A stretch of 63,896 nt of DNA, filler included, from an uncultured Myxococcia bacterium (GTDB lineage Bacteria > CAZTWC01): assembly GCA_964617105.1 (NCBI GenBank). It is 4 parts of 4 records of this genome, joined end to end, with 100 filler letters (N's around TTAATTAATTAA, not from the genome) between each part and the next. Parts side by side here need not be neighbours in the genome. Positions count along the whole stretch, not along the records: positions 16,711 to 33,315 come from CAZTWC010000058.1; 3 more parts are not named here. One strand, written 5' to 3'. The stretch's first letter is position 1, and each line of letters starts with the position of its first letter. The position numbers and the translations under genes are program-made. The notes beneath the pieces were generated by a model. It had not been told where the DNA came from. It was given only the letters and a program-made list of their open reading frames with translations, and did not search any database. Below are positions 16,611 to 33,415 of the stretch, in pieces.

Positions 16611-16710
16611 NNNNNNNNNNNNNNNNNNNNNNNNNNNNNNNNNNNNNNNNNNNNTTAATTAATTAANNNNNNNNNNNNNNNNNNNNNNNNNNNNNNNNNN
16701 NNNNNNNNNN
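16611..16710. other. Artificial contig linker
   Basis: N44-TTAATTAATTAA-N44 (stops in all six frames). Confidence 0.97.
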
Positions 16711-18405
16711 ATCGAACTTATCCGCTTTGGCAAGAAAATTGGCTATCATGCAATTCAAACTATAACCAATGGCCGCCTGTTCAGTTACCAGGCTTTTCTT
16801 ACTCAATGTATAGAGGCTGGTTTGAGCGAGATCACCTTTTCTCTCCATGGACATAATCCGGCTTTGCATGATTATTTGACCGGTGTACCCGGATCATTCA
16901 AACAAGCGCTGCAAGGACTTGATAATGTTCTTAAAGATAACCGGGTCATTGTCAACATTGATATTTGCATCAACCGTCAAAATATCCCATTTTTGCCAGA
17001 GATATTGGCCTTTTTTCATAACCGGGGGGTAAATGAGTTTGATCTCCTCTTTCCTGTCCCCTTTGGCAGTGCCTGGCAGGGGCACAACCGAGCCAAAATC
17101 TTTTACCCAATCCAGGATTATTGCCAACCCATTAATGCTGCCATAAACCTGGCTAAAGAGAACCATTTTCAAATCTGGTTTAATCGTTTCCCCCCCCCAT
17201 ATCTGGAGGGTAACGAAGATTTGATCCAGAGTCCGCTCAAATTGCGGGATGAGGTGCGAGGGCGTTTTGAAGAGTTAAATTTCTGGCTGCAAAGAGGAAT
17301 TACCATTAGTTGCTGTCAGGAGGAGCGCTGTGAGCACTGCTATATCCAAAATTTCTGTCAATACCTAAAAACTATACGCAGCCAATATCTTAACCAGGAG
17401 ATTGATGGGATAAAAATCGATCTCAGGCAATCTGAACAAAATGGAATGGACCTTAATCAATACCAGTATAAATACCTCTGGCTAAAGGCAAAAAATCTCC
17501 AACAACTAACAGATATAATTGTTGGCTTTGATTTGACCGATTCAAATTCAAAACTTATCTTCCAACTTGATGATTACACCGGCTTTTGTCAACTGCTGCA
17601 CCATTTTCCCATAGATATTGCCAGACTGGAGCGGGTTTACCTGTCCAAAAAAAGTGATATTGAAACCTTGCTGTCTAAAAACAACGATATTGAATTATTG
17701 CTGTCAAAAAATCCAAACTTTAGGTTATATATTTTTCTCAGTCAAGCAACTGCCGATTTTTTTCAAAAGGGACCTGGCTCAGAACAGTTACCCCTGGTGC
17801 GAAATGGATCAGGCCAAAAACAGTTGCCTCTAGTGCTGGTAAAGAGAAATTCCCTGGATACCCAGGGCTACAATTGCTTTGACCTTAACCAATTTTTCCA
17901 AAATCACTCCTTCTCCAGTCTGGCCACTGAAAATATCCCTCCCTGTATTGGCGGAAAAATCCCCCATAAACGCCTGAACATTTTAGATAGTTCTATTTTA
18001 GCAGGGAAAAGCAATGATCTGAGCGAAAAAGAGAAATCCGCGGTAACTGAAACCAGTAATGACCAAAATAAAAAACCAATCACCGTGGGCGACCCCGCTT
18101 TTTTAAAGGGTATGAGAAAATTTGGCTCCAAATACAGCCCAGAGATGCTTAGTAAAAATCGGTTTGCCCCCCTTGATCTGTTTGCCTTAACCGAGCAATA
18201 TATTGGAGAGCATTACTACAGTAAAAGTATTCGCTGTCAAACCTGTAGTTATAATAATCAATGTGAAGGAATGCATATATCGTATATTAGCAAGATGGGC
18301 TATAAGGTGCTTCAGCCAGAACCAAGAAATTCGAGCACGGATGACAAACGTCCGTCCGAACGTCTAGAGAATTTGGATTTAGCCGAATTCGAACAGGATA
18401 GATAA
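16711..18405 (+). CDS. Radical SAM protein, 5'-truncated by contig edge
   Basis: Frame open from 16711 (IELIRFGKKIGYHAIQTITNGRLFSY...EITFSLHGHNPALHDYLTGVPGSFKQAL), a radical SAM barrel pattern; auxiliary Cys motifs CEHCYIQNFC and CQTCSYNNQCEG. The CxxxCxxC motif would lie beyond the edge. Confidence 0.75.
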   Translation: MELIRFGKKIGYHAIQTITNGRLFSYQAFLTQCIEAGLSEITFSLHGHNPALHDYLTGVPGSFKQALQGLDNVLKDNRVIVNIDICINRQNIPFLPEILAFFHNRGVNEFDLLFPVPFGSAWQGHNRAKIFYPIQDYCQPINAAINLAKENHFQIWFNRFPPPYLEGNEDLIQSPLKLRDEVRGRFEELNFWLQRGITISCCQEERCEHCYIQNFCQYLKTIRSQYLNQEIDGIKIDLRQSEQNGMDLNQYQYKYLWLKAKNLQQLTDIIVGFDLTDSNSKLIFQLDDYTGFCQLLHHFPIDIARLERVYLSKKSDIETLLSKNNDIELLLSKNPNFRLYIFLSQATADFFQKGPGSEQLPLVRNGSGQKQLPLVLVKRNSLDTQGYNCFDLNQFFQNHSFSSLATENIPPCIGGKIPHKRLNILDSSILAGKSNDLSEKEKSAVTETSNDQNKKPITVGDPAFLKGMRKFGSKYSPEMLSKNRFAPLDLFALTEQYIGEHYYSKSIRCQTCSYNNQCEGMHISYISKMGYKVLQPEPRNSSTDDKRPSERLENLDLAEFEQDR

Positions 18406-19341
18406 ATGGCCAATATCGGTTACATACAGGTGGTGGGTTACTGTAATCATACCTGTGGCTTTTGTTCTTGTAACGGCACTACTGAACGCCATAGTGTTGA
18501 TGAAGTCAAATATATTATAGGTGATTTTGCCCAGCGAAACTACTTTGGCATTGTCTTGACCGGCGGTGAGCCAACCCTGCATCCCGATCTTCCCTTAATG
18601 GTAAAATATGGCCGGCAGCAGGGGCTCCATGTGCGCATCATCTCCAATGGAAAAACTTTGGCAGACCCAGATTACGCCAGAATACTTGGAGATGCGGGGC
18701 TGCAACTGGTCCACATCTCCATCTATTCTGTCCGGGCAGAAATTGAACGCCAATTGAGAGGAGTTGAAGGATCCATTGACCTGGCCTGCAGAGCCATTGA
18801 AAACTGTCACCAACAGGGGATAGATGTCCAGATAAATACGGTAATCAACAAGTTAAACGCCAATCACCTGGAGGAGAATGTCAGTTTTCTGGTCCAGAAG
18901 TACCCCTTTTTAAATCACTTTGTCTGGAATAATATTGACCCCTCTATGGGCAAAGCAGTAGATACCAAAGAGCGCTATCTCTCCAGCCTGGCAGATATGG
19001 AGTTATCACTCTATAACTCGCTTAAATTTTTAGATGAAAGCAACCGGACCTTTCGGGTAGAGAAAGTACCTCTCTGTTATATGACCGATTATGCCTGGGC
19101 CAGCACAGAAACCCGCAAAATTGTCAAAGAAGAGGAGCGGATAGTCCATTTTATCTTCAACCGCGACACCATTCGCCAGCGAAAGTGGGAATACCGCCAC
19201 TACGAACCCTGTGAGATCTGTCATCTAAACACTATCTGCGCCGGACTTTACCATCGAGGCGAGGGCTATGACCCAACCGAGTTGCACCCCCTGTTTATCC
19301 CGACGGCTCCGATAGTTGATAAGATTTTAAAGTTATGTTGA
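18406..19341 (+). CDS. Radical SAM protein with C-terminal Cys-rich auxiliary motif
   Basis: CNHTCGFC, LTGGEPTLHP, ISNG, VPLCYM, CEICHLNTICAG. Confidence 0.9.
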   Translation: MANIGYIQVVGYCNHTCGFCSCNGTTERHSVDEVKYIIGDFAQRNYFGIVLTGGEPTLHPDLPLMVKYGRQQGLHVRIISNGKTLADPDYARILGDAGLQLVHISIYSVRAEIERQLRGVEGSIDLACRAIENCHQQGIDVQINTVINKLNANHLEENVSFLVQKYPFLNHFVWNNIDPSMGKAVDTKERYLSSLADMELSLYNSLKFLDESNRTFRVEKVPLCYMTDYAWASTETRKIVKEEERIVHFIFNRDTIRQRKWEYRHYEPCEICHLNTICAGLYHRGEGYDPTELHPLFIPTAPIVDKILKLC

Positions 19342-19355
19342 TTGCCAGATCACAT

Positions 19356-19392
19356 TTGACTTACACATTCTTATGTGTTAACATTTGTGTAA
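19356..19392 (+). promoter_or_regulatory. Sigma70 promoter and palindromic operator of vapBC
   Basis: TTGACT-17-TAACAT; ACACAT-TCTT-ATGTGT palindrome in the spacer and outer TTACACA...TGTGTAA inverted repeat. Confidence 0.65.
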
Positions 19393-19398
19393 AAGGAG

Positions 19399-19602
19399 AT
19401 GTTCATGGCAACCAATTTAGCATTAGACGATAGTTTAATAGTAAAAGCTCAAAAAATCGGGCAGCACAAAACCAAAAAAGAAGCAGTTACTGCAGCGTTA
19501 AAAGAATACATTGCCCGCAAAAAACAATTAGAAATAATTGATTTATTTGGTACTATAGATTTTGATGAGAGTTTTGATTATAAAAAGGCTCGAAAAAGAT
19601 GA
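19399..19602 (+). CDS. vapB: VapB-type (RHH) antitoxin
   Basis: MATNLALDDSLI...KTKKEAVTAALKEYI; ATGA overlap with a PIN-domain gene. Confidence 0.85.
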   Translation: MFMATNLALDDSLIVKAQKIGQHKTKKEAVTAALKEYIARKKQLEIIDLFGTIDFDESFDYKKARKR

Positions 19603-19991
19603 AAATCTTAGTTGATACTTGTATCTGGTCTCTGGTGCTCAGAAAAAAAACTCCGGATTTAAATCTCACTAAAAAATTAGAAGATTTTATTTCTGATGGT
19701 AGAGTTGTAATTATTGGTCCAATAAGACAAGAACTTCTCTCAGGCCTTTCAAATCAATCTCAATTCACTAAATTGAAGCAGTTCCTCTCTTCTTTTAAAG
19801 ATACTAATCTAAAAACCGAGCATTTTGTTAGAGCAGCTGAATTCAGTAATTTATGTCGTAAAAATGGGATTCAAGGTTCAACAACCGATTTTTTAATTTG
19901 TGCAGTTGCAGATATTGAAAAACTGTCTATCTTTACCACCGATAATGACTTCAATAATTACAAAAGGTATCTAAAAATAAAACTTATCTAA
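19599..19991 (+). CDS. vapC: VapC PIN-domain toxin
   Basis: ILVDTCIW, IRQELLSG, DFLICA, IFTTDNDF. Confidence 0.9.
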   Translation: MKILVDTCIWSLVLRKKTPDLNLTKKLEDFISDGRVVIIGPIRQELLSGLSNQSQFTKLKQFLSSFKDTNLKTEHFVRAAEFSNLCRKNGIQGSTTDFLICAVADIEKLSIFTTDNDFNNYKRYLKIKLI

Positions 19992-20010
19992 TCCCCCAAT
20001 GGAAAAATAT

Positions 20011-21225
20011 ATGAGCATAGTTAAAATCGCCTGGAGAAATGTGTGGCGGAATCAGCGGCGCACCTTGATAACTGTGGCAGCCATGAGCCTGGCACTAACG
20101 GTTATGATCCTCTATTCCGGCCTGGTGAGAGGATATATGAAGGAGATGGAAAGTAAACTGTTGAACCTTGAATTGGGTGATATCCAAATATTTGCTCCCC
20201 AGTATAAGGAGATGCCCTCAATATACAAAAAAATAGATGAGCACACCGCTCTGCTGGATAAATTGCATGGCCAGGGATTTCTTGCTACAGCCCGATTATT
20301 GGGTGGTGGCCTGGGGGCCTCCAATCAAAACTCTGCTGGGGTTATATTCCTGGGTCTGGAAGTTGAAAATGATGCCAAAGTGAGCCAGATATACCAGCAT
20401 GTTATCAAGGGAAAATGGCTGGATCCCAGTCGTCCAAAAGAGGTGGTGGTGGGACGACGGCTGGCCCGCAACCTGGGGTTAAAAGAGGGAGATGAATTAA
20501 TGGTTCTCTCCCAGGGAGCTGATGGCAGTATGGCGAATGATATCTTTATTATCAGGGGCATCCTCAAAGGGATCAGCCAGGCTGCTGACCGGAGCGGGGT
20601 GTTTATGACCGCTGCAGCATTCAGGGAATTGATGGTCTTTCCCAGGGGGGTCCACCAGGTGATAGTTCGGCGGCCGGAAAATTTGCCTCTGAACATGGCT
20701 AAAATAGAGGTGGACAAGTTAGCCCCGGGGCAGGATGTAAAAACCTGGCGCCAGTTGATGCCAACTATAGCATCCATGCTTGCCAATGCCAAAAGTGTTA
20801 TGATGGTTATGTCCTTAATTGTGTATATCTCCATCGCCATTGTTATCCTAAACGCAATGTTGATGGCGGTTTTCGAAAGAATCAGGGAACTTGGGGTGTT
20901 AAAAGCCCTGGGGATGAAGCCTCTTTCGGTTTTTCTAATGATTTTTACCGAGAGTTTTATCCAGGTGCTGTTGGCGGTTCTTCTGGGATTGACTTTCTCC
21001 CTGCCCGGGGTCTGGTATTTGTCAACTGCAGGGATCAACCTGGAAAGCATGAGTGGTTTTTCTGCCCACGGATTAGCCTGGGATCCTATTTGGAAAGCCC
21101 AATTTAATTCTCAAACTTTCCAGGCTCCAGTGATCACTTTAGTGATTATAGTCTGCCTGGCGGTAATCTATCCGGCTATTAAAGCCGCCTTGATAAAACC
21201 GGTTAAAGCAATTAGTCATCAATAA
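20011..21225 (+). CDS. ABC transporter permease, LolC/FtsX family
   Basis: AWRNVWRNQRRT, VFERIRELGVLKALG, 1+3 TM topology. Confidence 0.9.
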   Translation: MSIVKIAWRNVWRNQRRTLITVAAMSLALTVMILYSGLVRGYMKEMESKLLNLELGDIQIFAPQYKEMPSIYKKIDEHTALLDKLHGQGFLATARLLGGGLGASNQNSAGVIFLGLEVENDAKVSQIYQHVIKGKWLDPSRPKEVVVGRRLARNLGLKEGDELMVLSQGADGSMANDIFIIRGILKGISQAADRSGVFMTAAAFRELMVFPRGVHQVIVRRPENLPLNMAKIEVDKLAPGQDVKTWRQLMPTIASMLANAKSVMMVMSLIVYISIAIVILNAMLMAVFERIRELGVLKALGMKPLSVFLMIFTESFIQVLLAVLLGLTFSLPGVWYLSTAGINLESMSGFSAHGLAWDPIWKAQFNSQTFQAPVITLVIIVCLAVIYPAIKAALIKPVKAISHQ

Positions 21226-21244
21226 TGGTTGGTGGGGGAATATT

Positions 21245-22492
21245 ATGAACAGCATGAGTCTTGCTTCCATGGCCTGGCGCAATTTATGGCGCAACCGGCG
21301 CCGCACCCTGATAACCCTGGTGGGTATTGCAGTGGGCACTGGGTTGGCTATCCTGTTTACCGGTCTTGGAGATGACACCTACGGCAAAATGATCGAACTG
21401 GCGGCCAAAATGGGGGGCGGACATGTTACCATTCAACATGCCGAATATATTGATAATCCCTCCACGAAAAACTATATCAAGGGGATTGGCAAAAAAACCG
21501 CTCTGGCCATGGCCAATCAGAAGGTGAAAAAAGTCAGTCCCAGGATTACTGGTTTTGCCATGTTGTCCACAGCCCGAGACAGCCATGGAGCCTTGATAAT
21601 GGCCTTTGACCCTCAAAAAGAAGACAAAAAAACCCTGACTTTTAAAGAAGCAATGGTTAAGGGATCTTTTTTTAATTCCCGGCATGACAAGGGGATCATT
21701 CTGGGTAAACGGCTGGCAGAGATTTTGCAAGTTAAACTGGGCCGCAAGGTGGTTTACACCATGTCGGATAAAAATGGCGAGATGGTCAGCGGCCTGGCCA
21801 GGGTTCGTGGTTATATCAGCACTGGAGTTGCCAGCCTGGATTCCAATATCTGCCTGCTAACCCTGGATTCTATACGTAAGGTGGTGGGATTAGGTAAAGA
21901 TGAAGCCACCCAGTTGGCAATTTTTATTAGTGATCAGCGTATTAGCAGCCGGGTGGCAAACCAACTGTCCCCCAACCTCAAGAAAGGAATCGTTGCCCTG
22001 GCCTGGCACCAAGTGCAGCCGGAATTGGCCGGATTTATCTCCATGAAGGTTTCTGGCACGGTTTTCTTTGAAATTATCATCATGCTGCTGGTAGCGGCTG
22101 GGATTTTTAACACTATTTTTGTTAGCGTAATGGAGCGGTTGCGAGAGTTTGGTATCCTGATGGCCCTTGGTTTCAGCCCAGCCAAACTGTTTATTTTAGT
22201 GACCTGGGAAAGTTTGTGGCTGGGAATTACCGGGCTGATAGCTTCCGCATTAATTACTGCCTGGCCTTACCATTATCTGAACACCAAAGGGATAGATCTA
22301 ACCGCCATGGTAGGGAAGGGCGGCACTGAAATATCGGGTGTGGCGGTGGACCCCATTATGAGAGTGAGCATCTATCCGGAAAATGCTTTGATAATTGGCC
22401 TGGTGGTGCTGGGAGCCACTTTACTATCTGGTATCTATCCCGCCTGGAAAGCGGGCAGGGTGGAGCCGGTAGAAGCGATAAAATTAGTATAA
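21245..22492 (+). CDS. ABC transporter permease, LolE/FtsX family
   Basis: AWRNLWRNRRRT, VMERLREFGILMALG, YPAWKA. Confidence 0.9.
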   Translation: MNSMSLASMAWRNLWRNRRRTLITLVGIAVGTGLAILFTGLGDDTYGKMIELAAKMGGGHVTIQHAEYIDNPSTKNYIKGIGKKTALAMANQKVKKVSPRITGFAMLSTARDSHGALIMAFDPQKEDKKTLTFKEAMVKGSFFNSRHDKGIILGKRLAEILQVKLGRKVVYTMSDKNGEMVSGLARVRGYISTGVASLDSNICLLTLDSIRKVVGLGKDEATQLAIFISDQRISSRVANQLSPNLKKGIVALAWHQVQPELAGFISMKVSGTVFFEIIIMLLVAAGIFNTIFVSVMERLREFGILMALGFSPAKLFILVTWESLWLGITGLIASALITAWPYHYLNTKGIDLTAMVGKGGTEISGVAVDPIMRVSIYPENALIIGLVVLGATLLSGIYPAWKAGRVEPVEAIKLV

Positions 22493-22535
22493 TAAATATT
22501 AAGAACTACCATAATGTCATAATAAGGAGATAATT

Positions 22536-23240
22536 TTGGAATTATCGACAGAGCAACCGGTTATCCAGATGAAAAAAGTGGATAAAATCTATTGGCAAGG
22601 GGATGTTCAGGTACAGGCCTTGAAAGAGATAAGCCTGGAAGTAAGTAAAGGCGAGTTTACCGCCATTTGCGGCCCTTCCGGATCGGGAAAAACTACTATC
22701 CTCAACCTCATAGGAGCCCTGGACAGCCCATCTTCGGGAGATATTTTACTGGAAGGGATAAACTTGAGCCAACAGAGCCGCTCCCGCCTCAGTCACCTGC
22801 GGTGCCACCGGATAGGTTTTGTTTTTCAAGCCTACAACCTGGTGCCGGTTTTAACCGCCTTTGAAAATGCGGAAGTGGTGCTCTCTTTGCAGAATATAGC
22901 CCGGCCGGAGCGCACCAAGCGGGTGATGGATTTGCTGGCCGAAGTTGGATTGGAGGGGATGGAGCATCGCCGCCCTCATCAACTATCGGGCGGACAACAG
23001 CAGCGAGTGGCCATTGCCAGGGCTATTGCCGCCAACCCGGCAGTGGTGCTGGCTGATGAGCCCACTGCCAATGTGGATTCTGAAACCGCTGAACATCTTT
23101 TGGATATTATGGAGCGCCTGAACCAAACCCTTCAAAAGACCTTTATCTTTTCCACCCACGATCCCCGGGTGATGAAGCGGGCCAGACGCATTATTCACCT
23201 TAAAGACGGCCGGATTGACCGGGTCGATTGTCAGGGCTGA
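22536..23240 (+). CDS. ABC ATP-binding protein, LolD-like
   Basis: GPSGSGKT, LSGGQQQRVAIARA, LADEPTAN, STHD. Confidence 0.93.
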   Translation: MELSTEQPVIQMKKVDKIYWQGDVQVQALKEISLEVSKGEFTAICGPSGSGKTTILNLIGALDSPSSGDILLEGINLSQQSRSRLSHLRCHRIGFVFQAYNLVPVLTAFENAEVVLSLQNIARPERTKRVMDLLAEVGLEGMEHRRPHQLSGGQQQRVAIARAIAANPAVVLADEPTANVDSETAEHLLDIMERLNQTLQKTFIFSTHDPRVMKRARRIIHLKDGRIDRVDCQG

Positions 23241-23242
23241 CA

Positions 23243-24529
23243 GTGAACACTATCTATTTCAGAGTCTTTATCAGAATCTTATTCCTGGCTATGGTAATAA
23301 CCACCATCTTAACCTCTCCATGCCAGGCTTTGGTCAATTTCTCCGGAAAATATTTGCGGGCCGACCTGGTGTTAAGCCAGCGGCTGAGCGGGGCATGGTT
23401 AGATTTTCCTGAGTATCAATATTTTCAAAATCTGGGTGATGATAATCTGGGAGCATCAATAACCAGGATACTAATCGATGGCGTCATTGGTGATTCCGTG
23501 AGTTTTGAGGCAAATATTTACGCTGACCTGGCAAAAATGCCCGACACCAGGTCCAGTCAGATCATGGGAGGGGCAGCCGTACTCTCATCTCCCTATAGAA
23601 CCCCTTTTTTATCTCACCGTTTTTGGGAAAGAGAAAATTTCCAAGGAGAGGTGGGCATTGACCGGCTGGCAATCTTTTGGAACCAAAATCCATGGACTCT
23701 CTCCCTGGGCCGGTTTACGGTCAATTACAGTGTAACCTCAATCTTTACTCCAAATGATTTTTTTGCCCCCTTTTCTGTTGCAGCAGTTAACAAAGTTTAC
23801 AAACCTGGAGTGGATGCCGCTCGAATAGTCCTGGAATTGGGAACGCTCTCCTCCCTGGAGATTATAGGCGTAATGGGCACTGACCAGCAAAATGTAAAAC
23901 CAGCCTGGGATGATGCCGCCCTCCTGGGTCGGGGCAGCACGGTTGTGGAAGATATCCATCTGGCTCTTATGGGTGGCAGGCTTGCTCAACGCTGGATAAT
24001 GGGTGGCTCAATTCAGGGCGAATCTGGTCCGGTTAATATTCGAACCGAAGGTCACGCCGGACGCTCCGATAGCAATCCAAAAGAGACATTTGTCCATCTG
24101 GCGGCCGGGCTGGACACCACTTTCAATTGGCAAAACTCCGGTGTGGGGATGGAATATGCTTTTTTCTCGGACCGGGCAAAAAATAGTGCCGATTATTTAG
24201 ATGAGGCCTTTCATCTACTGCCAGACCAGGGCTTATTTTTAGCCCGCCACTACCTGGGATTTTGGGGTGGATTGGATCTTTCTGCCCTCGCCAGGCTGAA
24301 CAACAGTTGGATTGTCAACCTTATAGACAGGTCCGGTCTGGTGACGGTTATGCTAATTTACAGTTTGGGAGATGAACTGGAGTTGGTTGCCGGGGCTTTA
24401 ACCAGTTGGGGAAAAACCGGGCCAGTTAACTCATTAAATCGGGTTGTAAACCAGATATCAGCCCTTGCTTATAGTGAATACGGCTATATGCCCAGGATGT
24501 TGTTCCTGGAAATCAGAACATATTTTTAG
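23243..24529 (+). CDS. Exported, probable outer-membrane beta-barrel protein
   Basis: Signal peptide, GIDRLAI..LSLGRF, F.PNDFFAPF, KPGVDA, C-terminal Phe (LEIRTYF). Confidence 0.65.
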   Translation: MNTIYFRVFIRILFLAMVITTILTSPCQALVNFSGKYLRADLVLSQRLSGAWLDFPEYQYFQNLGDDNLGASITRILIDGVIGDSVSFEANIYADLAKMPDTRSSQIMGGAAVLSSPYRTPFLSHRFWERENFQGEVGIDRLAIFWNQNPWTLSLGRFTVNYSVTSIFTPNDFFAPFSVAAVNKVYKPGVDAARIVLELGTLSSLEIIGVMGTDQQNVKPAWDDAALLGRGSTVVEDIHLALMGGRLAQRWIMGGSIQGESGPVNIRTEGHAGRSDSNPKETFVHLAAGLDTTFNWQNSGVGMEYAFFSDRAKNSADYLDEAFHLLPDQGLFLARHYLGFWGGLDLSALARLNNSWIVNLIDRSGLVTVMLIYSLGDELELVAGALTSWGKTGPVNSLNRVVNQISALAYSEYGYMPRMLFLEIRTYF

Positions 24530-24705
24530 CCTGCCGGCGACTGTTCGCAGACATCCATTTTTTGGTAGATCGCTTCAAATATATCGGTAATACGCAAAAC
24601 TCCCATGGTTATAACTCCGGTCCTTACCAATAGCGAATTGTGCTCTCTGGTAATCAACCGGTGGATGGCCGCAACCAGGGAACCACCGCCTGGGAAGGAA
24701 TGCAA
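24526..24705 (-). pseudogene. C-terminal remnant of a CBS-domain protein
   Basis: Translates SLVAAIHRLITREHNSLLVRTGVITMGVLRITDIFEAIYQKMDVC (single CBS repeat); in-frame TAG upstream at 24715-24717 and no N-terminal half. Confidence 0.55.
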
Positions 24706-24801
24706 ATCGCTAAACTAAGTCAAGATTGGATGGGGTGAAGCAACTATTGACTACTCTTGGGATTCTGGACATGTCGATTGGCTCTTAGGTGAGGTCTATT
24801 G

Positions 24802-26112
24802 TTATTGGTTGCTATTGGCCACTTTTTTGCAGGCTAAAACATAGATCACGCTGGAGAGACGGTTCAATCCGTGAAGTATCGCCTCCTTTTGGCGGCCCGA
24901 CAAATGCGGCGCTCCCTGGTCAAAAACCTCCAGCGCAGTCAACTCCACCTCCCGGCTGTATGCTCTCAGCAGGTTGAGTTTGGCGGCTGTCTTTCCAAGG
25001 GAGTGATGGGGCATCAAATAACCAACCTGCAAATATTTTTGGGTATTGTGGGAGATTTCTCTCATCTCATCTGCTGAAAGGCCGCCAACCTCTAATTGGG
25101 GAGGCATGGTGCCCTTGATCTCTGCCCCCATTAGTTTGCGGGCATAGTCCAGCACCTCTTTTAAGTCCTGGATTATTTCTGGCTGGTCCTCCTCCTGGGC
25201 GGCGATTTGAGCATCAATAATATAGGCTTGTAAAAGATCCAGTTTTCCTCTCAGTTTGATGACCGGTTCACTTTTTCTTACCAAAGAGTGGTTATCAAAT
25301 AGATGGGTAAAATCCTCTGGCTTTTCAGTTACCGACATCCCGCTGTAAAAAAGGATATATTGGCTAAAATCAGGTTTTTCTTTCTCTTTGATCCGGCTGG
25401 TGCTGGTTTTTAATCTGGCGTCTATTTGCCGGATTCTCTCTTCTGCATCATGGCCGGGTTCAAAACGATGGGGATGAGCCGCCAATTCCAACACCGTCTC
25501 CTGAAAGGCTTTGGCCGCAGCCTGGCAGGCGCAGAGGTCGCCTTTTAACAAAGCGCCGGCAAAATTGGTCTCTGAGGGGGGCGGATAATACTCGGCCATA
25601 TTAACCTGGGCAACCTTCAAAGCAGCATCGATCCCCAGGATAGCCTCGATGGGCGGGGCGATCAAATAGGCCAAAGGCTCACCAGGTGAAATACCAGCTA
25701 TTTTTGATAAATAATGGCCAGTGCTGCTGAGCACATGGGGGAAAAAAGTCAGAGAGTTGGTCTCATCAGCTGAATAGAACCAGGCGCTCTCTTCCAGATA
25801 ATCGCTGGTGGCTCGGATGCCGCTGGCTAAAATATCGGGGTCCTGGGCAGCCAAAATACCGATAATCTCGCCGGAAAAAGGTCCTGATGCATAATCAGAG
25901 CCTGCATAGAAACTCCTGGCGTAAACCACCTCCACCTCTGCCTCCTTGGTTCCTTGATCCAGGGCGGCGTAAAGTGAGTCATCAATGGTGCTGGTGATCA
26001 TGCCGATACAGGATTGTTCCGGTTTCAACTCCAGCACTTTGGCCAACTCCGGCTGCACACTGGTGATGGTGCGGACACTTAAAATTTCAGCTTTTATAGG
26101 TTCCAGAATCAT
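24802..26112 (-). CDS. eutL-eutT: EutL (BMC-T shell protein)-EutT (corrinoid adenosyltransferase) fusion, 436 aa
   Basis: ATG 26112 overlaps the eutC stop (ATGA). First ~215 aa carry EutL motifs (ALDQGTK, VVYARSFYAG, SGPFSGEIIG, LAYLIAPPIEA, PPSETNFAGALL). The C-half carries EutT motifs (KPEDFTHL, IKLRGKLD, ISHNTQKY, LNLLRAYSREVEL, LNRLSS). No stop or gap between them. Confidence 0.85.
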   Translation of the reverse strand: MILEPIKAEILSVRTITSVQPELAKVLELKPEQSCIGMITSTIDDSLYAALDQGTKEAEVEVVYARSFYAGSDYASGPFSGEIIGILAAQDPDILASGIRATSDYLEESAWFYSADETNSLTFFPHVLSSTGHYLSKIAGISPGEPLAYLIAPPIEAILGIDAALKVAQVNMAEYYPPPSETNFAGALLKGDLCACQAAAKAFQETVLELAAHPHRFEPGHDAEERIRQIDARLKTSTSRIKEKEKPDFSQYILFYSGMSVTEKPEDFTHLFDNHSLVRKSEPVIKLRGKLDLLQAYIIDAQIAAQEEDQPEIIQDLKEVLDYARKLMGAEIKGTMPPQLEVGGLSADEMREISHNTQKYLQVGYLMPHHSLGKTAAKLNLLRAYSREVELTALEVFDQGAPHLSGRQKEAILHGLNRLSSVIYVLACKKVANSNQ

Positions 26113-27101
26113 TTCGCACTCCCAGAAGAAGACAATCCAAGGCCGGATGTGCGCTGGGCTAAAATCTTCAGGGTCAGGTTTTTGATCTCTTCCACCGCTG
26201 CCGGGATATCTGTGCCTTTGCGGTGAATATTGGAAATCATGGAACGGTTGGCCTCGGTTATACTCTTCTGTTTTAGGTACAAGGCGTAACAACCCATACT
26301 TTCTGCCGACTTCAGGCCCGGCCTTTCACCCACCAGCATTAGCACCACCTCTGCGTTGACCAGTTTACCGATCTGATCGCCCACTATCACCCGGGAATTT
26401 TCCACAAAACAGACAGTTCCCAGGGAGATATTATCTTTGGCAAGCGTAGCCATCAAGGCAGGCAGCAGGGTAGGGAGGTTGGTATTTATGGCAGTGGAAC
26501 TTAAGCCATCTCCAACTACAATCTGCACCTGCGCCCCTTTTTTTAAACTGCTCTGAACTTTTTTTACCGATTCAGCCGATAACTCCCGGCCCAAATCGGG
26601 GCGACGCAAAAAGATAGCCATATCTTCAGCCGCAGATTTAAGCGGCACCACCTGCATTTGCTGCAGCATCTCTTCTGAAACCTTGGAATGAACCGCATCC
26701 CTGGCCGCCGCATGATCAGCCAAGAACTTAAACAGTACGGAGGATGGATAGCGGCAACCGCATCGCCCAATCTGCAAACGAGCCGGGGTGGTTGACAGGT
26801 ACCCGGGCAAATCACGAACCGGTTTCCATGGTTTATATGGCCTCTGCATGGGGATTTCAATTTTCTTGCCCAGCCAGTTCAGCACTTTTTTGCTAAGCAG
26901 ATCCTCTGCCAAAACCGGCTGCTCTCCCAAAATATCTCCAGCCCTAACTCCGGACAAGTTGACCGATCCCATTGCCGTCCCCTTTCCAGAAGTTCCGCCA
27001 ATACTGTTCTCATCTACCGAAAAAACAGCTGCCTTGGTGTCGCTCACATCAAAATCGCTAAGCACTTTTTTGACAATATCTTTTATCTCTTGCGGCTGCA
27101 A
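26109..27101 (-). CDS. eutC: Ethanolamine ammonia-lyase small subunit with N-terminal extension
   Basis: TPARLQIGRCG, DHAAARDAV, LRRPDLGR, DGLSS, GERPGL, ISNIH. Confidence 0.93.
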   Translation of the reverse strand: MQPQEIKDIVKKVLSDFDVSDTKAAVFSVDENSIGGTSGKGTAMGSVNLSGVRAGDILGEQPVLAEDLLSKKVLNWLGKKIEIPMQRPYKPWKPVRDLPGYLSTTPARLQIGRCGCRYPSSVLFKFLADHAAARDAVHSKVSEEMLQQMQVVPLKSAAEDMAIFLRRPDLGRELSAESVKKVQSSLKKGAQVQIVVGDGLSSTAINTNLPTLLPALMATLAKDNISLGTVCFVENSRVIVGDQIGKLVNAEVVLMLVGERPGLKSAESMGCYALYLKQKSITEANRSMISNIHRKGTDIPAAVEEIKNLTLKILAQRTSGLGLSSSGSAK

Positions 27102-27115
27102 TGAATACTCTCCTG

Positions 27116-28466
27116 TTACAAAAATATCCCCAAATGGCCAGCCATGCTGGTAAGGCGGCCGTTTTCCATCAGCCCCATCCGCTCCAGCCAGGTTTCAAAT
27201 TCCGGTGTGGGCCTTAGCCCTAATATCTCCCGGATGGCGGCATTATCATGAAAACTGGTGCTCTGATAGTTGAGCATAATATCATCGCCCATGGGCAAAC
27301 CCATGAAAAAATTTACTCCAGCCGACCCCAAAAGTATGGCTAAATTCTCCAGGTCGTTTTGGTCCATCTGCATATGGTTGGTATAGCAAACATCACAACC
27401 CATGGGAATCCCGTGCATCTTCCCCATAAAATGATCCTCCAAACCGGCTCTGATCACCTGTTTGCTGTCATATAGATATTCCGGGCCGATAAAACCAACC
27501 ACTGTGTTGACCAAAAAAGGCTTATACTGCCGGGCCAGTCCATAACAGCGCGCCTCCATCACCAATTGATCTGATCCATGGTGAGTTGCCGAGGACAGTT
27601 CCGAGCCCTGGCCGGTTTCAAAATAGAGTAAATTGGGCCCTTTGGCAGTGCTCAACTCCTGAATCATGGCCTGACATTCAGCCAGCATCTGGTTATTTAT
27701 CCCAAAAGCATTGTTGCCCTTTTCGCTGCCCGCAATACTCTGGAACATTATATCCATAGGCGCTCCGGCCTGCAGCACTTTCATCTGGGTGGTGATATGG
27801 GCCAAACAGCAAATCTGGGTGGGGACTTGAAAACTTCTGGTAAAATTAAAAAGATTCTCCAATATTGCCCTGGTGCTCTCCTCGGTATCAATGACCGGGT
27901 TAACCCCAATTAAAGCATCACCAGAGCCAAAAGAAAGTCCCTCCATGGTAGAGGCAATTATAGCATCAGGATGGTCGGTGGTATGGTTGGGCTGTAGCCT
28001 GACGCCCAGGCGGCCAGCCAGTCCCATGGTGGTGTTGGCATGGGTAATCACCCTGATTTTCGAGGCCGCACTTACCAGGTCCAGGTTGGACATCAATTTG
28101 GCCAGGGCAGCGATACATTCGCTGGTAAGGCCCCGGCCCAGGGTCAACAGATCCTGACCAGAAACATCCCGATCCAGAACATATTCCCGCAATTGGCCAA
28201 TGGTAAAGGACTTGAACCTCTCATATACCGCCATATCTAAATTATCATCGATTATCCTGGTTACTTCGTCCTCCTGGTAGGGAACAACTGGATGGTTCCG
28301 GATCTCCTCCACCAGCACATCGGCCNNNNNNNNNNCTTTCAGTGGCGTTTTTGGCGGCCACACCAGCCAGTTGATCTCCGGATTTCTCTTCGTTGGCCTT
28401 GGCCAGAACCTCTTTCAGACTATGGAACTGCCAACTCTTACCGCCTAGTAGAGTTTTTAATTTCAA
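27116..28466 (-). CDS. eutB: Ethanolamine ammonia-lyase large subunit (frame break at N gap 28326-28335)
   Basis: VLAKANEEKSGDQLAGVAA, RLQPNHTTD, GDALIGVNP, YFETGQGSELS, RAGLEDHFMGK, MGCDVCYTNH, DIMLNYQSTSFHD. Confidence 0.95.
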
Positions 28467-28628
28467 TCGAATATTCCTCCCTGGGAGCGCATCTATCAGA
28501 CACTATCTAATTTTTTATTCCATTTTATATAGAAAGTCAATGAGTTGATTGGAAAGGGGGATAGTCTAAAACCTATGGTGAAAATGTAAATATTCCAATT
28601 TGAAATTCTAATGTTGCAAAAAATATAC

Positions 28629-28661
28629 GTGAAAAAAAACTACACTGTGAAATAAAACTAC
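28629..28661. promoter_or_regulatory. 15-bp direct repeat, possible activator binding sites
   Basis: GTGAAAAAAAACTAC and GTGAAATAAAACTAC, 18-bp period, about 145 bp upstream of a -24/-12 motif. Confidence 0.4.
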
Positions 28662-28803
28662 GAAATTCCGCTAATATTTTCATTTATATGAAGATTTATA
28701 ATCGGACCAACTATTTCGGTATAATGTATTAGAAGGCCATTTTTAGCCTCTTAACCACCACCTCACATCTATTTCGACAATATCTCACGAACAAATGGCG
28801 ACC

Positions 28804-28819
28804 TGGCTCGTTTCTTGCA
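28804..28819 (+). promoter_or_regulatory. Putative sigma54 -24/-12 promoter
   Basis: TGGCTCG-TTTC-TTGCA, one mismatch to TGGCACG-N4-TTGCW. Confidence 0.6.
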
Positions 28820-29044
28820 TATTAATAAACAAATTTTTACTTATACTATATAGTTCATCCTATAGTCTTTAGTTGAAAACACTATTATCGGTAATAAATT
28901 TGCTACTCCAGTGATTACAATGTAATATGCTGACATAGTTGGCCCGGCATTTGTAGAGGTAATAACCAGGTTACTTTTCGGATATGAACTAACTATTTCA
29001 GGACAACTATTTTTTTAATGAAAATTTACTATTAGTTACTAAAC

Positions 29045-30370
29045 ATGACTCAATCTAAAATTCAAAACCGGGAAATTTCTCAACAGTTGCTCCAAAGAGA
29101 GAAACCCATTCTTTCACCTGGGATCCAAAATATCTCCATCCTGGCTCAGATGGCCCTTGAAAAAGGGGAGGGAGCGATTTTACAGGATGTGGAAGGCAAC
29201 CGGATCATCGACTTTTTCGCCGGGGTAGGAGTAGCCAGCGTGGGGCACGGTCATCCGCACCTGGCCAAAATGATTTCAGAGCAGGCTTCTCGATTTATGG
29301 CCACCAGTTTTTGCAGTTCCAGCCGGGTGGAATATCTGGAAGCCCTGGCTGAAATTCTGCCGGAAAAAACTAGACGGGTACAACTCTATTCCAGCGGCGC
29401 CGAAGCGGTTGAAGCCGCCTTGCGTCTGGCTCGTTGTTATACCAAAAAATACGAAGTAATCTCTTTTTGGGGTGGTTTCCACGGTAAAACCGCCGGGGTA
29501 TTACCTTTGATGGGCAGCAATTTCAAGCACCAGTTAGGTCCCCAGGGGATTGGCTGCCATATTATGCCCAATGCCGACTGCTCCCAGTGTCCCTTTAAAT
29601 TGGAGTATCCTGATTGCGGCCTCTTGTGCGCTCAGTTCGTGGAAGATGCCATTAAAAGGCAGACTTTCGGCAGTCTGGCCGCCATTATTGTAGAACCAAT
29701 CCAGGGCACTGAAGGCAATATAGTTCCCCCGGATGGATATCTGCCCGCTCTGGCCGAGATTGCCCGCCGCCATGATATGGTATTTATCCTGGATGAAATG
29801 ATCACCGGTTTTGGACGCACAGGAAAGATGTTTGGCCACCAACACTTTGATGTAACCCCAGATATTATGACTTTGGGCAAAGGTATGGGCGCCGGTTTTC
29901 CGGTAACAGGCCTGGTTTCCAGTGAGGATATTGTCAATGCCAAACCCTTTTCCAATCCATCTTTCTCCTCCTCCAGCTACGGCGGTAATCCATTAGCCTG
30001 TGCCGCAGGTAAAGGGGTATTGGATATTATTCAAAAACAGGATTTGGTGGCCAACTCAAAAACTATGGGCGATAGGATTCTATCCAGTCTTAAAGAGATG
30101 AAAAACAGATTCCCCTTTATTGGTCGCATCCAGGGCAAAGGATTGATGATTGGCGTTGATTTGGTAGAAGATCAACAAACCGGAAAACTAGCCTCCTCGA
30201 AAAAATGTCAGTGGCTGTTTAAACAGACCATAAAAAGAGGACTTTTAACTATGAACTATACCCCCAGGTGGAGAATTAATCCTCCCCTGGTAATCAATGA
30301 ATCTCAAGTGGACAGAGGGTTGGAAATAATAGAGGAAGTGTTTGATTCATTTAAATTAAAATTTTTTTAA
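29045..30370 (+). CDS. Class III PLP aminotransferase
   Basis: SSGAEAVEAALR, GFHGKT, EPIQGTEG, DEMITGFGRTG, DIMTLGKG, YGGNP. Confidence 0.92.
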   Translation: MTQSKIQNREISQQLLQREKPILSPGIQNISILAQMALEKGEGAILQDVEGNRIIDFFAGVGVASVGHGHPHLAKMISEQASRFMATSFCSSSRVEYLEALAEILPEKTRRVQLYSSGAEAVEAALRLARCYTKKYEVISFWGGFHGKTAGVLPLMGSNFKHQLGPQGIGCHIMPNADCSQCPFKLEYPDCGLLCAQFVEDAIKRQTFGSLAAIIVEPIQGTEGNIVPPDGYLPALAEIARRHDMVFILDEMITGFGRTGKMFGHQHFDVTPDIMTLGKGMGAGFPVTGLVSSEDIVNAKPFSNPSFSSSSYGGNPLACAAGKGVLDIIQKQDLVANSKTMGDRILSSLKEMKNRFPFIGRIQGKGLMIGVDLVEDQQTGKLASSKKCQWLFKQTIKRGLLTMNYTPRWRINPPLVINESQVDRGLEIIEEVFDSFKLKFF

Positions 30371-30431
30371 TGCGTGATGGTGGAGCGGGTAGTTGGTCAA
30401 AATACCAGCAATAACCTTTCAGGAGAAAACC

Positions 30432-31568
30432 ATGAAATCGACAAAAATTAACAAAAAAATGCGCGGCGCTATTATCGGTTACGGCTCTATTGCCCAACGA
30501 GGACATGCACCAGCCTACCGTAAAATGGAAGACGTGGAAATTGTAGCCGTGGCAGATATTCAAATGTCCAGATTAAAAGCCGCCCGAGAAGATTTTGGCG
30601 ACATCAATTGCTATGTGGATTATAAAGAATTACTGGTAGCAGAGGAGTTGGATTTTGTGGATATCGCCACCTCGCCTCATGTTCATGGCTCCATCTCTAT
30701 GACAGCCAACAATCTGGGAATTCATGTACTCTGTGAAAAACCTATTACTACCTCCACTTATGAAGCCAAACGGGTAATTAATAACGCCCTGAAAAACCAG
30801 GTCGTCTTTTTTCCCTGCCACAACTACAAACACGCCCCCATTATTAAGGCTGCCACCAAACTGATCAGAGAAGGCGCCATTGGTAATGTCAGCCAGATTA
30901 CCATGCAGACTTTCAGGACCGATCATGCCCACGGAACTCCCGACTGGATCCCTGATTGGCGGCGGACCAGAAAATATTCCGGAGGTGGAATCGGTATGGA
31001 TCACGGTAGCCACAGCCTCTATTTGGCTTTTATGTGGATGGGACATTTTCCCGACTCTCTCACCTGCCACGCCTTTCGTAAAAACAAGAAATACGATGTA
31101 GAAGACAATGTTATGGCCACTCTGGAGTTTGAAAACGGCACCACTAACCTGATGCTCACCTGGACCGCCGGCTCCCGAAAAGTTATGTATAGTATCCAGG
31201 GCGACAAGGGCTCCATTTATGTGAATGAAGATAAAATGGAACTGGTGCAAAACGGCCGCAGCAAGTTAGTTGATATCCGCTCCGATTTTGACGACTCCTC
31301 TCACACCACCTGGTTTACCTCACTGTTCCACGAATTCCAGAATGCTATCGACAAAGAGATAACCATCAATCCTCATGTGATAGAAGCCTATATGTGCGTA
31401 CAAACCATCGAAAAGATGTATGAATCTGCGTACAACCACTGTGAAGATACTACCGTTCCCATGCCTTACTTCTCCATACCTGAACAAAAAATCCATTGGG
31501 ATTTAGAACCACAGTTGTTGCCAGATATAGACAATGTCAAGGAGCACAGCAATAACCTGAGTATTTGA
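30432..31568 (+). CDS. Gfo/Idh/MocA family oxidoreductase
   Basis: IIGYGSIA, HVLCEKP, SGGGIGMDHGSH. Confidence 0.9.
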   Translation: MKSTKINKKMRGAIIGYGSIAQRGHAPAYRKMEDVEIVAVADIQMSRLKAAREDFGDINCYVDYKELLVAEELDFVDIATSPHVHGSISMTANNLGIHVLCEKPITTSTYEAKRVINNALKNQVVFFPCHNYKHAPIIKAATKLIREGAIGNVSQITMQTFRTDHAHGTPDWIPDWRRTRKYSGGGIGMDHGSHSLYLAFMWMGHFPDSLTCHAFRKNKKYDVEDNVMATLEFENGTTNLMLTWTAGSRKVMYSIQGDKGSIYVNEDKMELVQNGRSKLVDIRSDFDDSSHTTWFTSLFHEFQNAIDKEITINPHVIEAYMCVQTIEKMYESAYNHCEDTTVPMPYFSIPEQKIHWDLEPQLLPDIDNVKEHSNNLSI

Positions 31569-31570
31569 TC

Positions 31571-33031
31571 ATGCCAACTACCGTTGTTATCGATTTCCGT
31601 GGAATCAACCGGCCACTGTTAGACACCAATAAAAACCAGCGAGATTACAAGGGATTGGAAAAAGTTTGTGGCCTATCCCTTTTGATCAGAAATCTACTGC
31701 TCTTTCAACGAAAAGGTTACCAATCTTTTCTGCTGCTGGCTGGAAAAGAGAGTATAGACTTACTGCAAAAAGAACTATTGGAAACCAATTCTCCATATCC
31801 CCCGGTCCAGATTATAGAATCTAATGGAGAAGACCTCTATTTTCTAAAAGATCATTTCGACCAAACAAAAGATAAACCGGTCCAGAACTCTTTTCTCTAC
31901 TGGCCGGGAGCCTTGACTTTCGGTCGTTTTTTACCCGATTTCGTCCAACAATCGAATATAGATCTGGTTTCAGCGCTGGTTGGAAATAGTTCAGAAGACT
32001 ATTTCCCCATTGGTGATCTTGGCCTCCAAAATGGTGAAAAATTTACCGGGGCCTTTATTGCTTCCATAGATAAATTTACCCCAGAAATAAACTCACCCCA
32101 AAAATTACTCCTTCATTACGGTAATCAGAACCAATTGCAGTTAATTTCCGAAAAAGAGAAAACCTGGCAAATACTTTTTCGCCACCAGCAGCGTGAAGTT
32201 GCAGAAAAAGAGTTGCTCTTTTCCCTGCGCAAGCCTGCCGATGGACTTACCGCCAGATATGACCGCCACATCTCTTTATATTTCAGCAAAAAAATAATGC
32301 ACACCAATCTCTCCCCCAATTTCTTTACTATATTTTCACTGGGGCTGGGAATACTGGCAGGTATAATCGCCTCTTTCGGCGGTTATTTCTATATGCTGAT
32401 CGGGGCTTTGCTCTTTCAAACAAATTCGATTTTAGACGGCATAGACGGCGAGATAGCCAGAGCCAAACTATTGGAGTCAAAATTGGGTGAATGGTTGGAT
32501 ACCATCGGCGATGATCTGTCCAACCTGGTATTTTTAGTTTTACTCAATGTGGGACTCAGCAAAACCATCACCTGGCTGCCGCCGGAACTATTCATTGTAC
32601 TTGCCTGGGTAACCGGTATCTGTTTTACTTTTGGACAATTGCAACAGTATTCTTTTGTTCACTTTACCCTTGGGTCTGGAGATATCAATAGTTTCGTGCT
32701 GCCCCATGTTTATTTTGATCAGCAAAACAATTCTGAAAAAACTACAAATTCAACTCAATTCAGCCAAAATGAAAATGTAAATGACCTAAAAACCCTAACA
32801 GAAGGAAATATGGGGTGGAAAAATTCATCTGGTATTGATAGAATACTTTTTTACCTTAAATATTTAGTTAAAAGGGACACTTTCACCCTGGCTATCACAA
32901 TTTTGGCAATAGTGGGACAACTCTGGTTGGTGGCCCTGGGCGGCGCCGTGGCAGCGGTTTGTGTTTTCGCAGTTATCTCCTTCTCAAACCTGTTGGCCTT
33001 GCGAACCCGATATAGACGTTTAAAAGTTTAA
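31571..33031 (+). CDS. CDP-alcohol phosphotransferase with degenerate N-terminal nucleotidyltransferase-like domain
   Basis: SPNFFT and DGIDGEIARAKLLESKLGEWLDTIGD signature; N-terminal VCGLSLLIRNL. Confidence 0.85.
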   Translation: MPTTVVIDFRGINRPLLDTNKNQRDYKGLEKVCGLSLLIRNLLLFQRKGYQSFLLLAGKESIDLLQKELLETNSPYPPVQIIESNGEDLYFLKDHFDQTKDKPVQNSFLYWPGALTFGRFLPDFVQQSNIDLVSALVGNSSEDYFPIGDLGLQNGEKFTGAFIASIDKFTPEINSPQKLLLHYGNQNQLQLISEKEKTWQILFRHQQREVAEKELLFSLRKPADGLTARYDRHISLYFSKKIMHTNLSPNFFTIFSLGLGILAGIIASFGGYFYMLIGALLFQTNSILDGIDGEIARAKLLESKLGEWLDTIGDDLSNLVFLVLLNVGLSKTITWLPPELFIVLAWVTGICFTFGQLQQYSFVHFTLGSGDINSFVLPHVYFDQQNNSEKTTNSTQFSQNENVNDLKTLTEGNMGWKNSSGIDRILFYLKYLVKRDTFTLAITILAIVGQLWLVALGGAVAAVCVFAVISFSNLLALRTRYRRLKV

Positions 33032-33089
33032 ACCTATCGGCAGAGCCCAATTAACTGGCAATAAACCTTGACCCTGTAGATAGGTAATT

Positions 33090-33315
33090 ATGACTAAAGC
33101 TATTTTGTTCGACTATGGTGGAACCCTGGATTCAGAGGGATGGCACTGGTCCAGCCAATTTTTTCAGGCTATCACCAAATATCTTCCCAACCTGGAAAGA
33201 AAAGTTGTAGATAGGGCATTTCTCCAGGCAGATGGTGAACTCTACAATGAACCGGAAGTAGTTTCATTTGGACTTTTTGCCCATATCAAACGCCATTGGG
33301 AAATAATGGCTTCCA
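33090..33315 (+). CDS. HAD family hydrolase, 3'-truncated
   Basis: AILFDYGGTLDSEG motif I; runs into the contig end. Confidence 0.75.
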
Positions 33316-33415
33316 NNNNNNNNNNNNNNNNNNNNNNNNNNNNNNNNNNNNNNNNNNNNTTAATTAATTAANNNNNNNNNNNNNNNNNNNNNNNNNNNNN
33401 NNNNNNNNNNNNNNN
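33316..33415. other. Artificial contig linker
   Basis: N44-TTAATTAATTAA-N44. Confidence 0.97.

Follow-up and report, generated by a model that had tools for sequence, protein, structure and literature searches.

Why should the shell protein EutL and an adenosyltransferase resembling EutT, which are encoded by separate genes in ordinary ethanolamine utilization (EUT) loci, be joined in a single protein, and what would such a protein do? The question is raised by a stretch of DNA of 63,896 nucleotides (referred to below as the window) from an uncultured Myxococcia bacterium (CAZTWC01; NCBI GenBank assembly GCA_964617105.1), in which eutL::ATR, a fusion gene for EutL and an ATP:corrinoid adenosyltransferase (ATR), is located on the minus strand at 24802-26112, beside eutB and eutC. 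The answer that we regard as probable is that the product is a bifunctional shell protein, i.e. an EutL trimeric tile with a minimal EutT/PduO-like ATR on a flexible linker, and that it belongs to a module which adds ethanolamine ammonia-lyase to a bacterial microcompartment (BMC) shell encoded elsewhere. Tethering of the ATR to a shell tile to serve EutBC had already been suggested in a first-pass annotation of this DNA, and is still the most economical reading.

The fusion gene is, as that annotation had stated, one uninterrupted open reading frame (ORF), which codes for 436 amino acids (aa) and runs from an ATG at 26112 to a stop codon at 24804-24802. It is the last gene of its operon; a GGGAG box is found upstream, the ATG overlaps the eutC stop codon as ATGA, and the next gene downstream is convergent. 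Three parts can be distinguished, all on the minus strand: an EutL-type tandem permuted BMC domain (residues 1-216; 25465-26112), a variable and charged linker (residues 217-257; 25342-25464) and an EutT/PduO-like ATR core (residues 258-436; 24805-25341). The two genes ahead of it on the same strand are eutC (26109-27101), encoding 330 aa from a TTG start with the EutC domain at residues 103-323 (PF05985, E 1.5e-75), and eutB (27116-28466; PF06751, E 2.6e-188). The longest eutB ORF looks truncated because a 10-N scaffold gap (28326-28335) breaks its 5' end; the probable TTG start at 28466, picked by eye, sits behind a GGAGG box. The window itself consists of four contigs of one bin, joined by N44-TTAATTAATTAA-N44 spacers at 16611-16710, 33316-33415 and 49823-49922, with further N runs at 1868-1890, 28326-28335 and 33634-33683. 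Gene neighborhood across the joints is therefore meaningless, and the true gene context of the fusion is the contig of 16,605 bp at 16711-33315.

Could two adjacent genes simply have been merged by a sequencing or annotation error? The window does come from a low-coverage metagenome bin (word depth ~2-5) with scaffold gaps, but an artefact is next to inconceivable given how often the architecture recurs. Out of 406 matches at E <= 1e-3 in a homolog search, the best 120 clusters were listed, and in 117 of these a single protein of 392-476 aa combines PF00936 with PF01923, at 44-59% identity to the window protein. Single-ORF fusions were found at 40 independent loci, namely five full-length copies in Myxococcota metagenome-assembled genomes from a species-genome collection and 35 among 80 metagenome loci fetched. 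Out of 401 genomes sampled evenly from Myxococcota, a match was obtained in 99; of these, 29 encode the fusion and 70 match the EutL part alone, so the fusion is widespread rather than rare. Both halves lie in one open frame in 28 of the 29. The sole apparent split, in genome G133 (locus L110, G133:C9, ~10113-10371), was rejected as a natural one: a gap of ~100 N falls in the linker, and the flanks are duplicated, the same 18-19 residues being coded on either side in different frames.

The junction itself was checked with contigs assembled from public sequencing runs of two studies, one of which may be the source of the window. These showed zero differences from the window over 24933-25398, which crosses the boundary between ATR and linker, and over 25373-25614, which crosses that between linker and EutL, with gaps in read cover in some bins (e.g. 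25668-25788). The runs carrying the fusion sequence are marine or seawater metagenomes, with no RNA run listed among them. The fusion is thus real, conserved and widespread. Source databases name the homologs only "EutL", and in the ESM Atlas a 68-member cluster, commonest in Myxococcota, has been named automatically as "BMC/Cobalamin adenosyltransferase domain-containing protein". No paper characterizing the fusion, nor any characterized natural fusion of an enzyme to a shell protein, was found in the literature searched; the words "adenosyltransferase" and "EutT" are absent from the main text of Sutter et al. 2021 (PMC8217296), the supplements of which may still draw the fusion. The first-pass statement that no characterized fusion was known accordingly stands: the architecture is widespread and has an automatic name, and no text searched describes it.

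By its sequence, the N-terminal half is an ordinary EutL. Pfam BMC matches it in two stretches (E 2.4e-10), the NCBIfam EutL model NF011934 covers residues 2-216 with 286.8 bits, above its cutoff of 198, and a second EutL model, TIGR04502, gives 299 bits, just below its cutoff of 300. Identity to the Clostridium perfringens EutL is 51% (PDB 4edi, E 8.8e-66). The full-length AlphaFold model has a mean predicted local distance difference test score (pLDDT) of 91.9, and Foldseek superimposes its EutL half on the EutL structures 4fdz and 4edi with a template modeling (TM) score of 0.97 and a root-mean-square deviation of 1.3 Å. Among 115 aligned fused proteins (43-57% identity), 54 columns are invariant, including 16 ATR residues and the lysines K56 and K166 of two D-x-x-x-K-A-A edge motifs, a pattern which suggests purifying selection on both halves; the KAAN motif is named as an inter-hexamer interface motif in the available text of the catalog preprint of Sutter et al. 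In fold, edge-lysine motifs and position right after eutBC, the fusion is thus like the known tandem permuted BMC-T protein EutL of Escherichia coli and C. perfringens (PDB 4edi, 3gfh, 3i82), and it differs in a C-terminal extension of ~220 residues with an enzyme domain.

The linker is poorly conserved and modeled with low confidence (pLDDT 76-51), with a single helix predicted at residues 223-243; the charged stretch quoted in the first-pass annotation was located at residues 220-246. Between P214 and K264, both invariant, the spacing varies from 29 to 56 residues in the 115 proteins, with a median of 42 and a value of 49 in the window.

What, then, is attached to the shell protein? Both domains named in the first-pass annotation were recovered above their respective cutoffs by hidden Markov model searches: EutL with NF011934 as given above, and Cob_adeno_trans (PF01923) at residues 269-428, with E 3.3e-14, 53.7 bits against a gathering score of 24, and profile positions 11-169 of 171. 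The best NCBIfam match of the C-terminal half is the EutT model NF011595 (residues 260-432, E 2.3e-25), which is matched at positions 86-250 of 267. Its score remains below the curated cutoff. Modeled alone, the domain reaches a pLDDT of 95.6 and is predicted to fold like PduO-type adenosyltransferases. The 50 Foldseek ranks shown comprise PduO-type ATRs (human MMAB, Lactobacillus reuteri, Mycobacterium tuberculosis, Burkholderia thailandensis and PH0671), an uncharacterized archaeal protein, or designed cages and scaffolds, at TM 0.5-0.74; all E-values are at least 0.0011, making the ranking informative and the scores weak. The best structural neighbors are PduO-type enzymes such as L. reuteri PduO, human MMAB and the M. 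tuberculosis protein (TM 0.6-0.74), from which the fused core nevertheless differs by a very low sequence similarity (14-24% identity; 22 bits against 108 for TIGR00636). A sequence search of the PDB returned no EutT structure.

With stand-alone EutT the fused core shares its best NCBIfam match, the pathway served and 14 columns that are invariant over 31 fused proteins and eight stand-alone EutT from ordinary EUT loci, i.e. K264, T269, L271, K280, R288, D292, L317, H355, L379, R383, R387, E390, N417 and S420 in window numbering. The constraint on the core is the same as that on stand-alone EutT. Among its motifs are R-x3-R-x2-E and N-R-x-S (N-R-L-S), which we take to be hallmarks of the cofactor or ATP site of PduO/MMAB. 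Unlike EutT, it lacks an N-terminal region and a Cys motif. All nine stand-alone EutT frames from EUT loci (L006, L012, L013, L058, L074-L076, L084 and L085) have 75-100 aa ahead of the core, opening with a conserved segment of ~50 aa, I-(I/V)-T-E-x-x-L-R ... (L/I)-(T/S)-P-(S/A)-A, and the fusion has none. Where a stand-alone EutT has a Cys motif, it is located in this region; a C-x2-C stretch occurs in four of the nine (the high-GC ones and L058), the other low-GC ones being without it. CC-x2-C is found in none of the 115 aligned fused proteins, because EutL and the linker replace the entire EutT N-terminal region. The absence of the motif had been read in the first pass as a sign of the metal-free class; it reflects the loss of the whole region, and does not demonstrate membership of the Listeria class. 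A metal-free EutT class in Listeria and Firmicutes is reportedly due to Costa and Escalante-Semerena (2018), the Salmonella enzyme being metal-containing.

The symmetry of the two halves is of importance for how they could be joined. PduO-type enzymes are trimeric, with active sites at the subunit interfaces, and EutT is reportedly a dimer. Three copies of residues 255-436, modeled with an alignment of 115 rows, gave an interaction prediction score from aligned errors (ipSAE) of 0.94, compared with 0.01 for the best control; when the tool was calibrated, as high a score was obtained for 20 of 30 proteins with structures solved as pairs of one chain, and for one of 23 with structures solved as single chains. 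Contact agreement in the trimer runs was at least 54% and partner pLDDT at least 83. The modeled interface is cyclic, helix 285-306 packing against 368-391 of the next copy, and includes G289, D292, R383 and R387, with R288 and E390 adjoining; conserved Arg, Asp and Glu residues thus lie at the predicted subunit interface, a likeness to the PduO-type ATRs. The score may do no more than reflect similarity to solved PduO-type structures. Taken at face value, the models suggest that the fused core, in contrast to the reportedly dimeric EutT, would form a C3 trimer matching the C3 EutL tile, and probably would do so in vivo. The first-pass suggestion of a cage that needs no further shell proteins, made from a trimer linked to a dimer, would lose its footing here, since a trimeric core leaves no symmetry mismatch with EutL.

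The gene neighborhood of the fusion was compared between loci. EutC lies directly upstream of the fusion in 36 of the 40 loci, and the other four have less than 1.3 kb of upstream sequence. The order eutB-eutC-fusion was found with Pfam in L003 and with tblastn in six of seven further Myxococcota loci. The module stands apart from other shell genes: BMC-H or BMC-P was found near the fusion in none of the 40 fused loci. This includes the 16 in which each flank extends over 3 kb or more, whereas all 24 unfused EutL loci with flanks of that length have such a gene. In ordinary EUT loci, EutT has a gene of its own, a few kb downstream of that for EutL. Next to eutB, no EutA was detected in L003, in L005 or in the window.

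Shell genes do occur elsewhere in the genomes concerned. BMC-P (PF03319) was found elsewhere in ten out of ten fusion genomes tested, with three to eight matches each, and BMC-H together with further BMC-T genes in five out of five. In each of the first five fusion genomes, three or four BMC-P matches stand in a row, an arrangement given in the available text of the catalog preprint as the BMC-P triplet characteristic of HO-type loci. An Aldedh-family match is located in the main locus of genomes G003 and G005, with BMC-T genes on one side and BMC-P genes on the other, and this enzyme would take the acetaldehyde made by EutBC. The organism of the window presumably also has a shell of its own.

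Sutter et al. 2021 (PMC8217296) described satellite "EUT modules" of HO, SPU3 and SPU6 microcompartments, which contain EutA/B/C and EutL. The fusion modules are like these in eutB, eutC and an EutL-type BMC-T(sp), in their location distal from the main BMC-H and BMC-P locus, and in their occurrence in Myxococcota; they differ in having no detected EutA and in the ATR carried by EutL. The combination of eutB-eutC-eutL::ATR without nearby shell genes, a shell encoded elsewhere in relatives, and the peptide-like EutC N-terminus described below marks the locus as a probable satellite EUT module in the sense of these authors.

This context also bears on the notion that EutL-ATR is a self-sufficient scaffold, forming sheets or a cage that organizes EutBC without any BMC-H or BMC-P. 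EutL alone can form sheets, and the 64 kb of the window yielded no further shell gene. However, the true context within those 64 kb is 16.6 kb, other shell proteins occur in all ten related fusion genomes, the EutC N-terminus points to encapsulation, and a symmetry mismatch is unlikely if the ATR is a trimer as modeled. We consider such a scaffold very unlikely.

Fused and unfused forms were placed relative to each other in a tree built from 98 EutL domains. The satellite type is parted from 52 EutL of ordinary EUT loci by a branch supported at 96 in the Shimodaira-Hasegawa-like approximate likelihood ratio test (SH-aLRT), and on the satellite side are 37 fused proteins, eight unfused ones from Myxococcota, and L097. 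The fusion is thereby set off from known EutL as part of a separate clade of satellite-module proteins without nearby BMC-H or BMC-P. The eight unfused proteins form one clade (95), nested with weak support among the fused ones, and no nearby shell genes were found at the eight unfused Myxococcota loci fetched. A simple rule by which fused EutL would mark satellites and unfused EutL the main EUT locus was consequently rejected; in Myxococcota the satellite module comes in two forms, with plain EutL or with EutL-ATR. L097 (785-1597) encodes an EutL of 270 aa inside the fused clade, with a short Arg/Gly/Pro-rich tail instead of an ATR, and is probably a case of secondary loss. The gene following it looks, by eye, like one for a small-conductance mechanosensitive channel. 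The history of the ATR may have involved one gain with losses, or two gains.

In four of the eight unfused satellite loci (L099-L102; genomes G143, G063, G014 and G108), no EutB could be detected in the 20 kb retrieved, even at an E-value of 10. EutC and EutL are side by side in these four, and the gene upstream in L101 looks like an ABC-F ATPase. The window EutB shares 63-74% identity with the EutB proteins of fused modules, compared with 52-57% for those of unfused Myxococcota modules. All five fusion genomes searched have two PF01923 genes, one housekeeping PduO-type gene (139-175 bits where complete; a 54-bit fragment at a contig end in G001) and the fused one (50-60 bits). Five out of five Myxococcota with an unfused satellite EutL have the housekeeping PduO-type gene only. 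The fused ATR is hence an extra, dedicated copy.

How would the lyase and the ATR come to be in the same compartment? An encapsulation peptide at the EutC N-terminus is known from Salmonella. The window EutC starts with M-QPQEIKDIVKKVLSDF, residues 1-17 forming an amphipathic helix, followed by a linker of ~85 aa to the EutC domain. The N-termini of the window EutC and of EutC from all 18 fused loci inspected follow the pattern D-x-x-x-(L/I)-x-x-(L/I/M)-(V/I)-(R/K)-x-x-(V/L), e.g. MDEKELRELVRAVV, and resemble an encapsulation peptide. This resemblance is the sole evidence within the window that the organism encapsulates EutBC.

For the side of the shell on which the ATR would hang, two analogies are of use. 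According to the available text of PMC6109187, a permuted BMC domain has its termini on the face opposite to the canonical ones; this face is convex, and in recombinant shells it is regarded as luminal. In passages of bioRxiv 10.1101/2021.10.27.466122, PduB, which belongs to the same BMC-T(sp) class as EutL, is considered to touch the enzymatic core with its N-terminus. Together these make it most likely that the ATR hangs into the lumen, on the convex face. An outward-facing arrangement can be envisaged instead, in which the ATR trimer on the cytosolic face adenosylates cytosolic cob(I)alamin and feeds adenosylcobalamin (AdoCbl) inwards by way of the gated pore of EutL, a picture close to that of the first pass. 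The cytosol is rich in ATP and reductant, and passage of AdoCbl through the large EutL pore has been postulated (available text of PMC5821096); the reference list of this review cites a cobalamin-bound EutL structure (Thompson 2014). We nevertheless regard the outward arrangement as unlikely, given both the placement of the permuted termini and the cytosolic housekeeping PduO-type ATR that each fusion genome already has, next to which a second cytosolic one would be redundant.

Shell proteins with additional domains have been noted before, e.g. the helix-turn-helix domain of EutK (available text of PMC5821096) and C-terminal extensions of BMC-H proteins of up to 200 residues (available text of the catalog preprint). 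The BMC domain serves as an anchor in these cases as well; the difference here is that a full, conserved enzyme core is carried, and by a BMC-T protein.

With the ATR taken as luminal, the bifunctional shell protein could work as follows. The three-gene module eutB-eutC-eutL::ATR would be portable, the bulk shell (BMC-H, BMC-P and other BMC-T) and an aldehyde dehydrogenase being encoded elsewhere in the genome. EutBC would enter the compartment via the peptide-like N-terminus of EutC, and the EutL part would tile into a facet. Within one EutL trimer, the three ATR domains would combine into one PduO-like trimer, matching the C3 symmetry of the tile, and this trimer, probably on the luminal face, would re-adenosylate cob(I/II)alamin with ATP and so keep EutBC in AdoCbl. 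Genetic fusion would replace an encapsulation peptide on the ATR and fix the ratio of ATR to EutL at 1:1. A more specific version places the ATR trimer coaxially under the gated EutL pore, where it would adenosylate captured corrinoid and hand AdoCbl to EutBC. Human MMAB, for comparison, hands AdoCbl straight to its mutase. We hold this pore-coupled station to be improbable as a description of the system; if it were true, an encapsulation peptide for the ATR and the EutA reactivase would both be unnecessary, and the module would be a minimal, horizontally portable kit turning an unrelated microcompartment into an ethanolamine organelle.

Several observations weigh against a bifunctional shell protein of this kind. 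The first group concerns catalysis: the fusion does not reach the curated cutoff of either EutT (NF011595, 89.1 bits against 226) or PduO (TIGR00636, 22.1 bits against 108.45), and the core could be inactive if the missing EutT N-terminal region is needed for activity. These same features would fit a non-catalytic adaptor, an ATR-like core that has lost catalysis and binds cobalamin or docks EutBC at the EutL tile, and in the available texts of PMC12487888 and bioRxiv 10.1101/2021.10.27.466122, EutL and PduB are indeed implicated in the association of shell and cargo. However, all 14 columns common to fused and stand-alone EutT are retained, and conserved residues line the modeled subunit interface, where PduO-type enzymes have their active sites. 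An adaptor of this type seems to us quite unlikely, less so than a self-sufficient scaffold.

The second group of contrary observations concerns the bifunctional shell protein in its genomic setting. A single BMC-H query and a single BMC-P query found neither gene in the 64 kb of the window. No full EutA was found in any of 15 genomes, the only traces elsewhere being fragments of 42-57 residues with 19-31 bits, or no match at all, which leaves the exit of spent cofactor from EutBC unexplained. In about 70 of the 401 genomes from Myxococcota, a related EutL occurs that has no ATR, and the existence of unfused satellite modules means that such a module can do without the ATR. The sidedness proposed above is an analogy with other shell proteins and not a structure of this protein in a shell. 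Finally, the window is an outlier: its guanine-plus-cytosine content is 44.8%, as opposed to 50-76% in the 40 other fused loci, its EutL sits on a long terminal branch (0.55), and the best identity of its protein to any homolog is 57%. Concerning EutA, the EutBC of Acinetobacter baumannii works without it, according to the available text of PMC9426561.

In the intergenic sequence just 3' of the fusion stop codon, positions 24700-24784 have a word depth of 6-38x in four public runs, compared with ~2-5x over the operon. One fixed C>T and one 1-base deletion were seen there, and contigs diverge at 24784/24785. The sequence is single-copy in the window, no tRNA was found in it, and it looks like a short element that also occurs in other genomes or places of greater abundance. 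With zero Rfam matches at gathering thresholds in the window, a B12 riboswitch was not called. Scans of 24450-29100 for promoters (eight found, 7.1 expected) and terminators (five found, 4.9 expected) were at chance level.

Divergent from the eut operon, a plus-strand group at 29045-33031 encodes a class-III aminotransferase, a GFO/IDH/MocA oxidoreductase and a protein of 488 aa. The C-terminal half of the latter is a CDP-alcohol phosphatidyltransferase, with a partial match (94 bits against 580) to a model for inositol-phosphate cytidylyltransferase/DIPP-synthase, and the three genes may form a cluster that makes a head group, or a solute, resembling an amino-inositol. The best identity of the aminotransferase is 57%, the named matches being from Kofleriaceae, Myxococcales, "Deltaproteobacteria", Methylomirabilota and NC10. 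On the other side of the contig, at 19399-19991 on the plus strand, a VapB antitoxin (67 aa) and a PIN-domain VapC (130 aa) with overlapping stop and start codons are flanked on one side by a radical-SAM gene and on the other by a MacB-type ABC exporter made up of two FtsX permeases and an ATPase. A different contig of the bin encodes, on the minus strand at 45150-49160, a hybrid sensor kinase of 1336 aa with 7TMR-DISM, HisKA, two HATPase_c and receiver domains.

The fusion bears on the supply and recycling of cofactor in a closed shell, on the facing of shell proteins and on the stoichiometry of cargo, and the side on which the enzyme hangs would report the in vivo orientation of EutL. As no EutT chain was found in the PDB, the core of ~180 aa, which is predicted to fold with high confidence, may help in obtaining the first EutT-type structure. 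Luminal targeting has been engineered by means of a permuted PduA, as reported in the available text of PMC6109187. If the bifunctional shell protein is as proposed, evolution would have solved the encapsulation of the ATR by covalent tethering, the same trick that engineers use to load shells, and the compact three-gene module suggests a portable route to B12-dependent activity in a heterologous shell.

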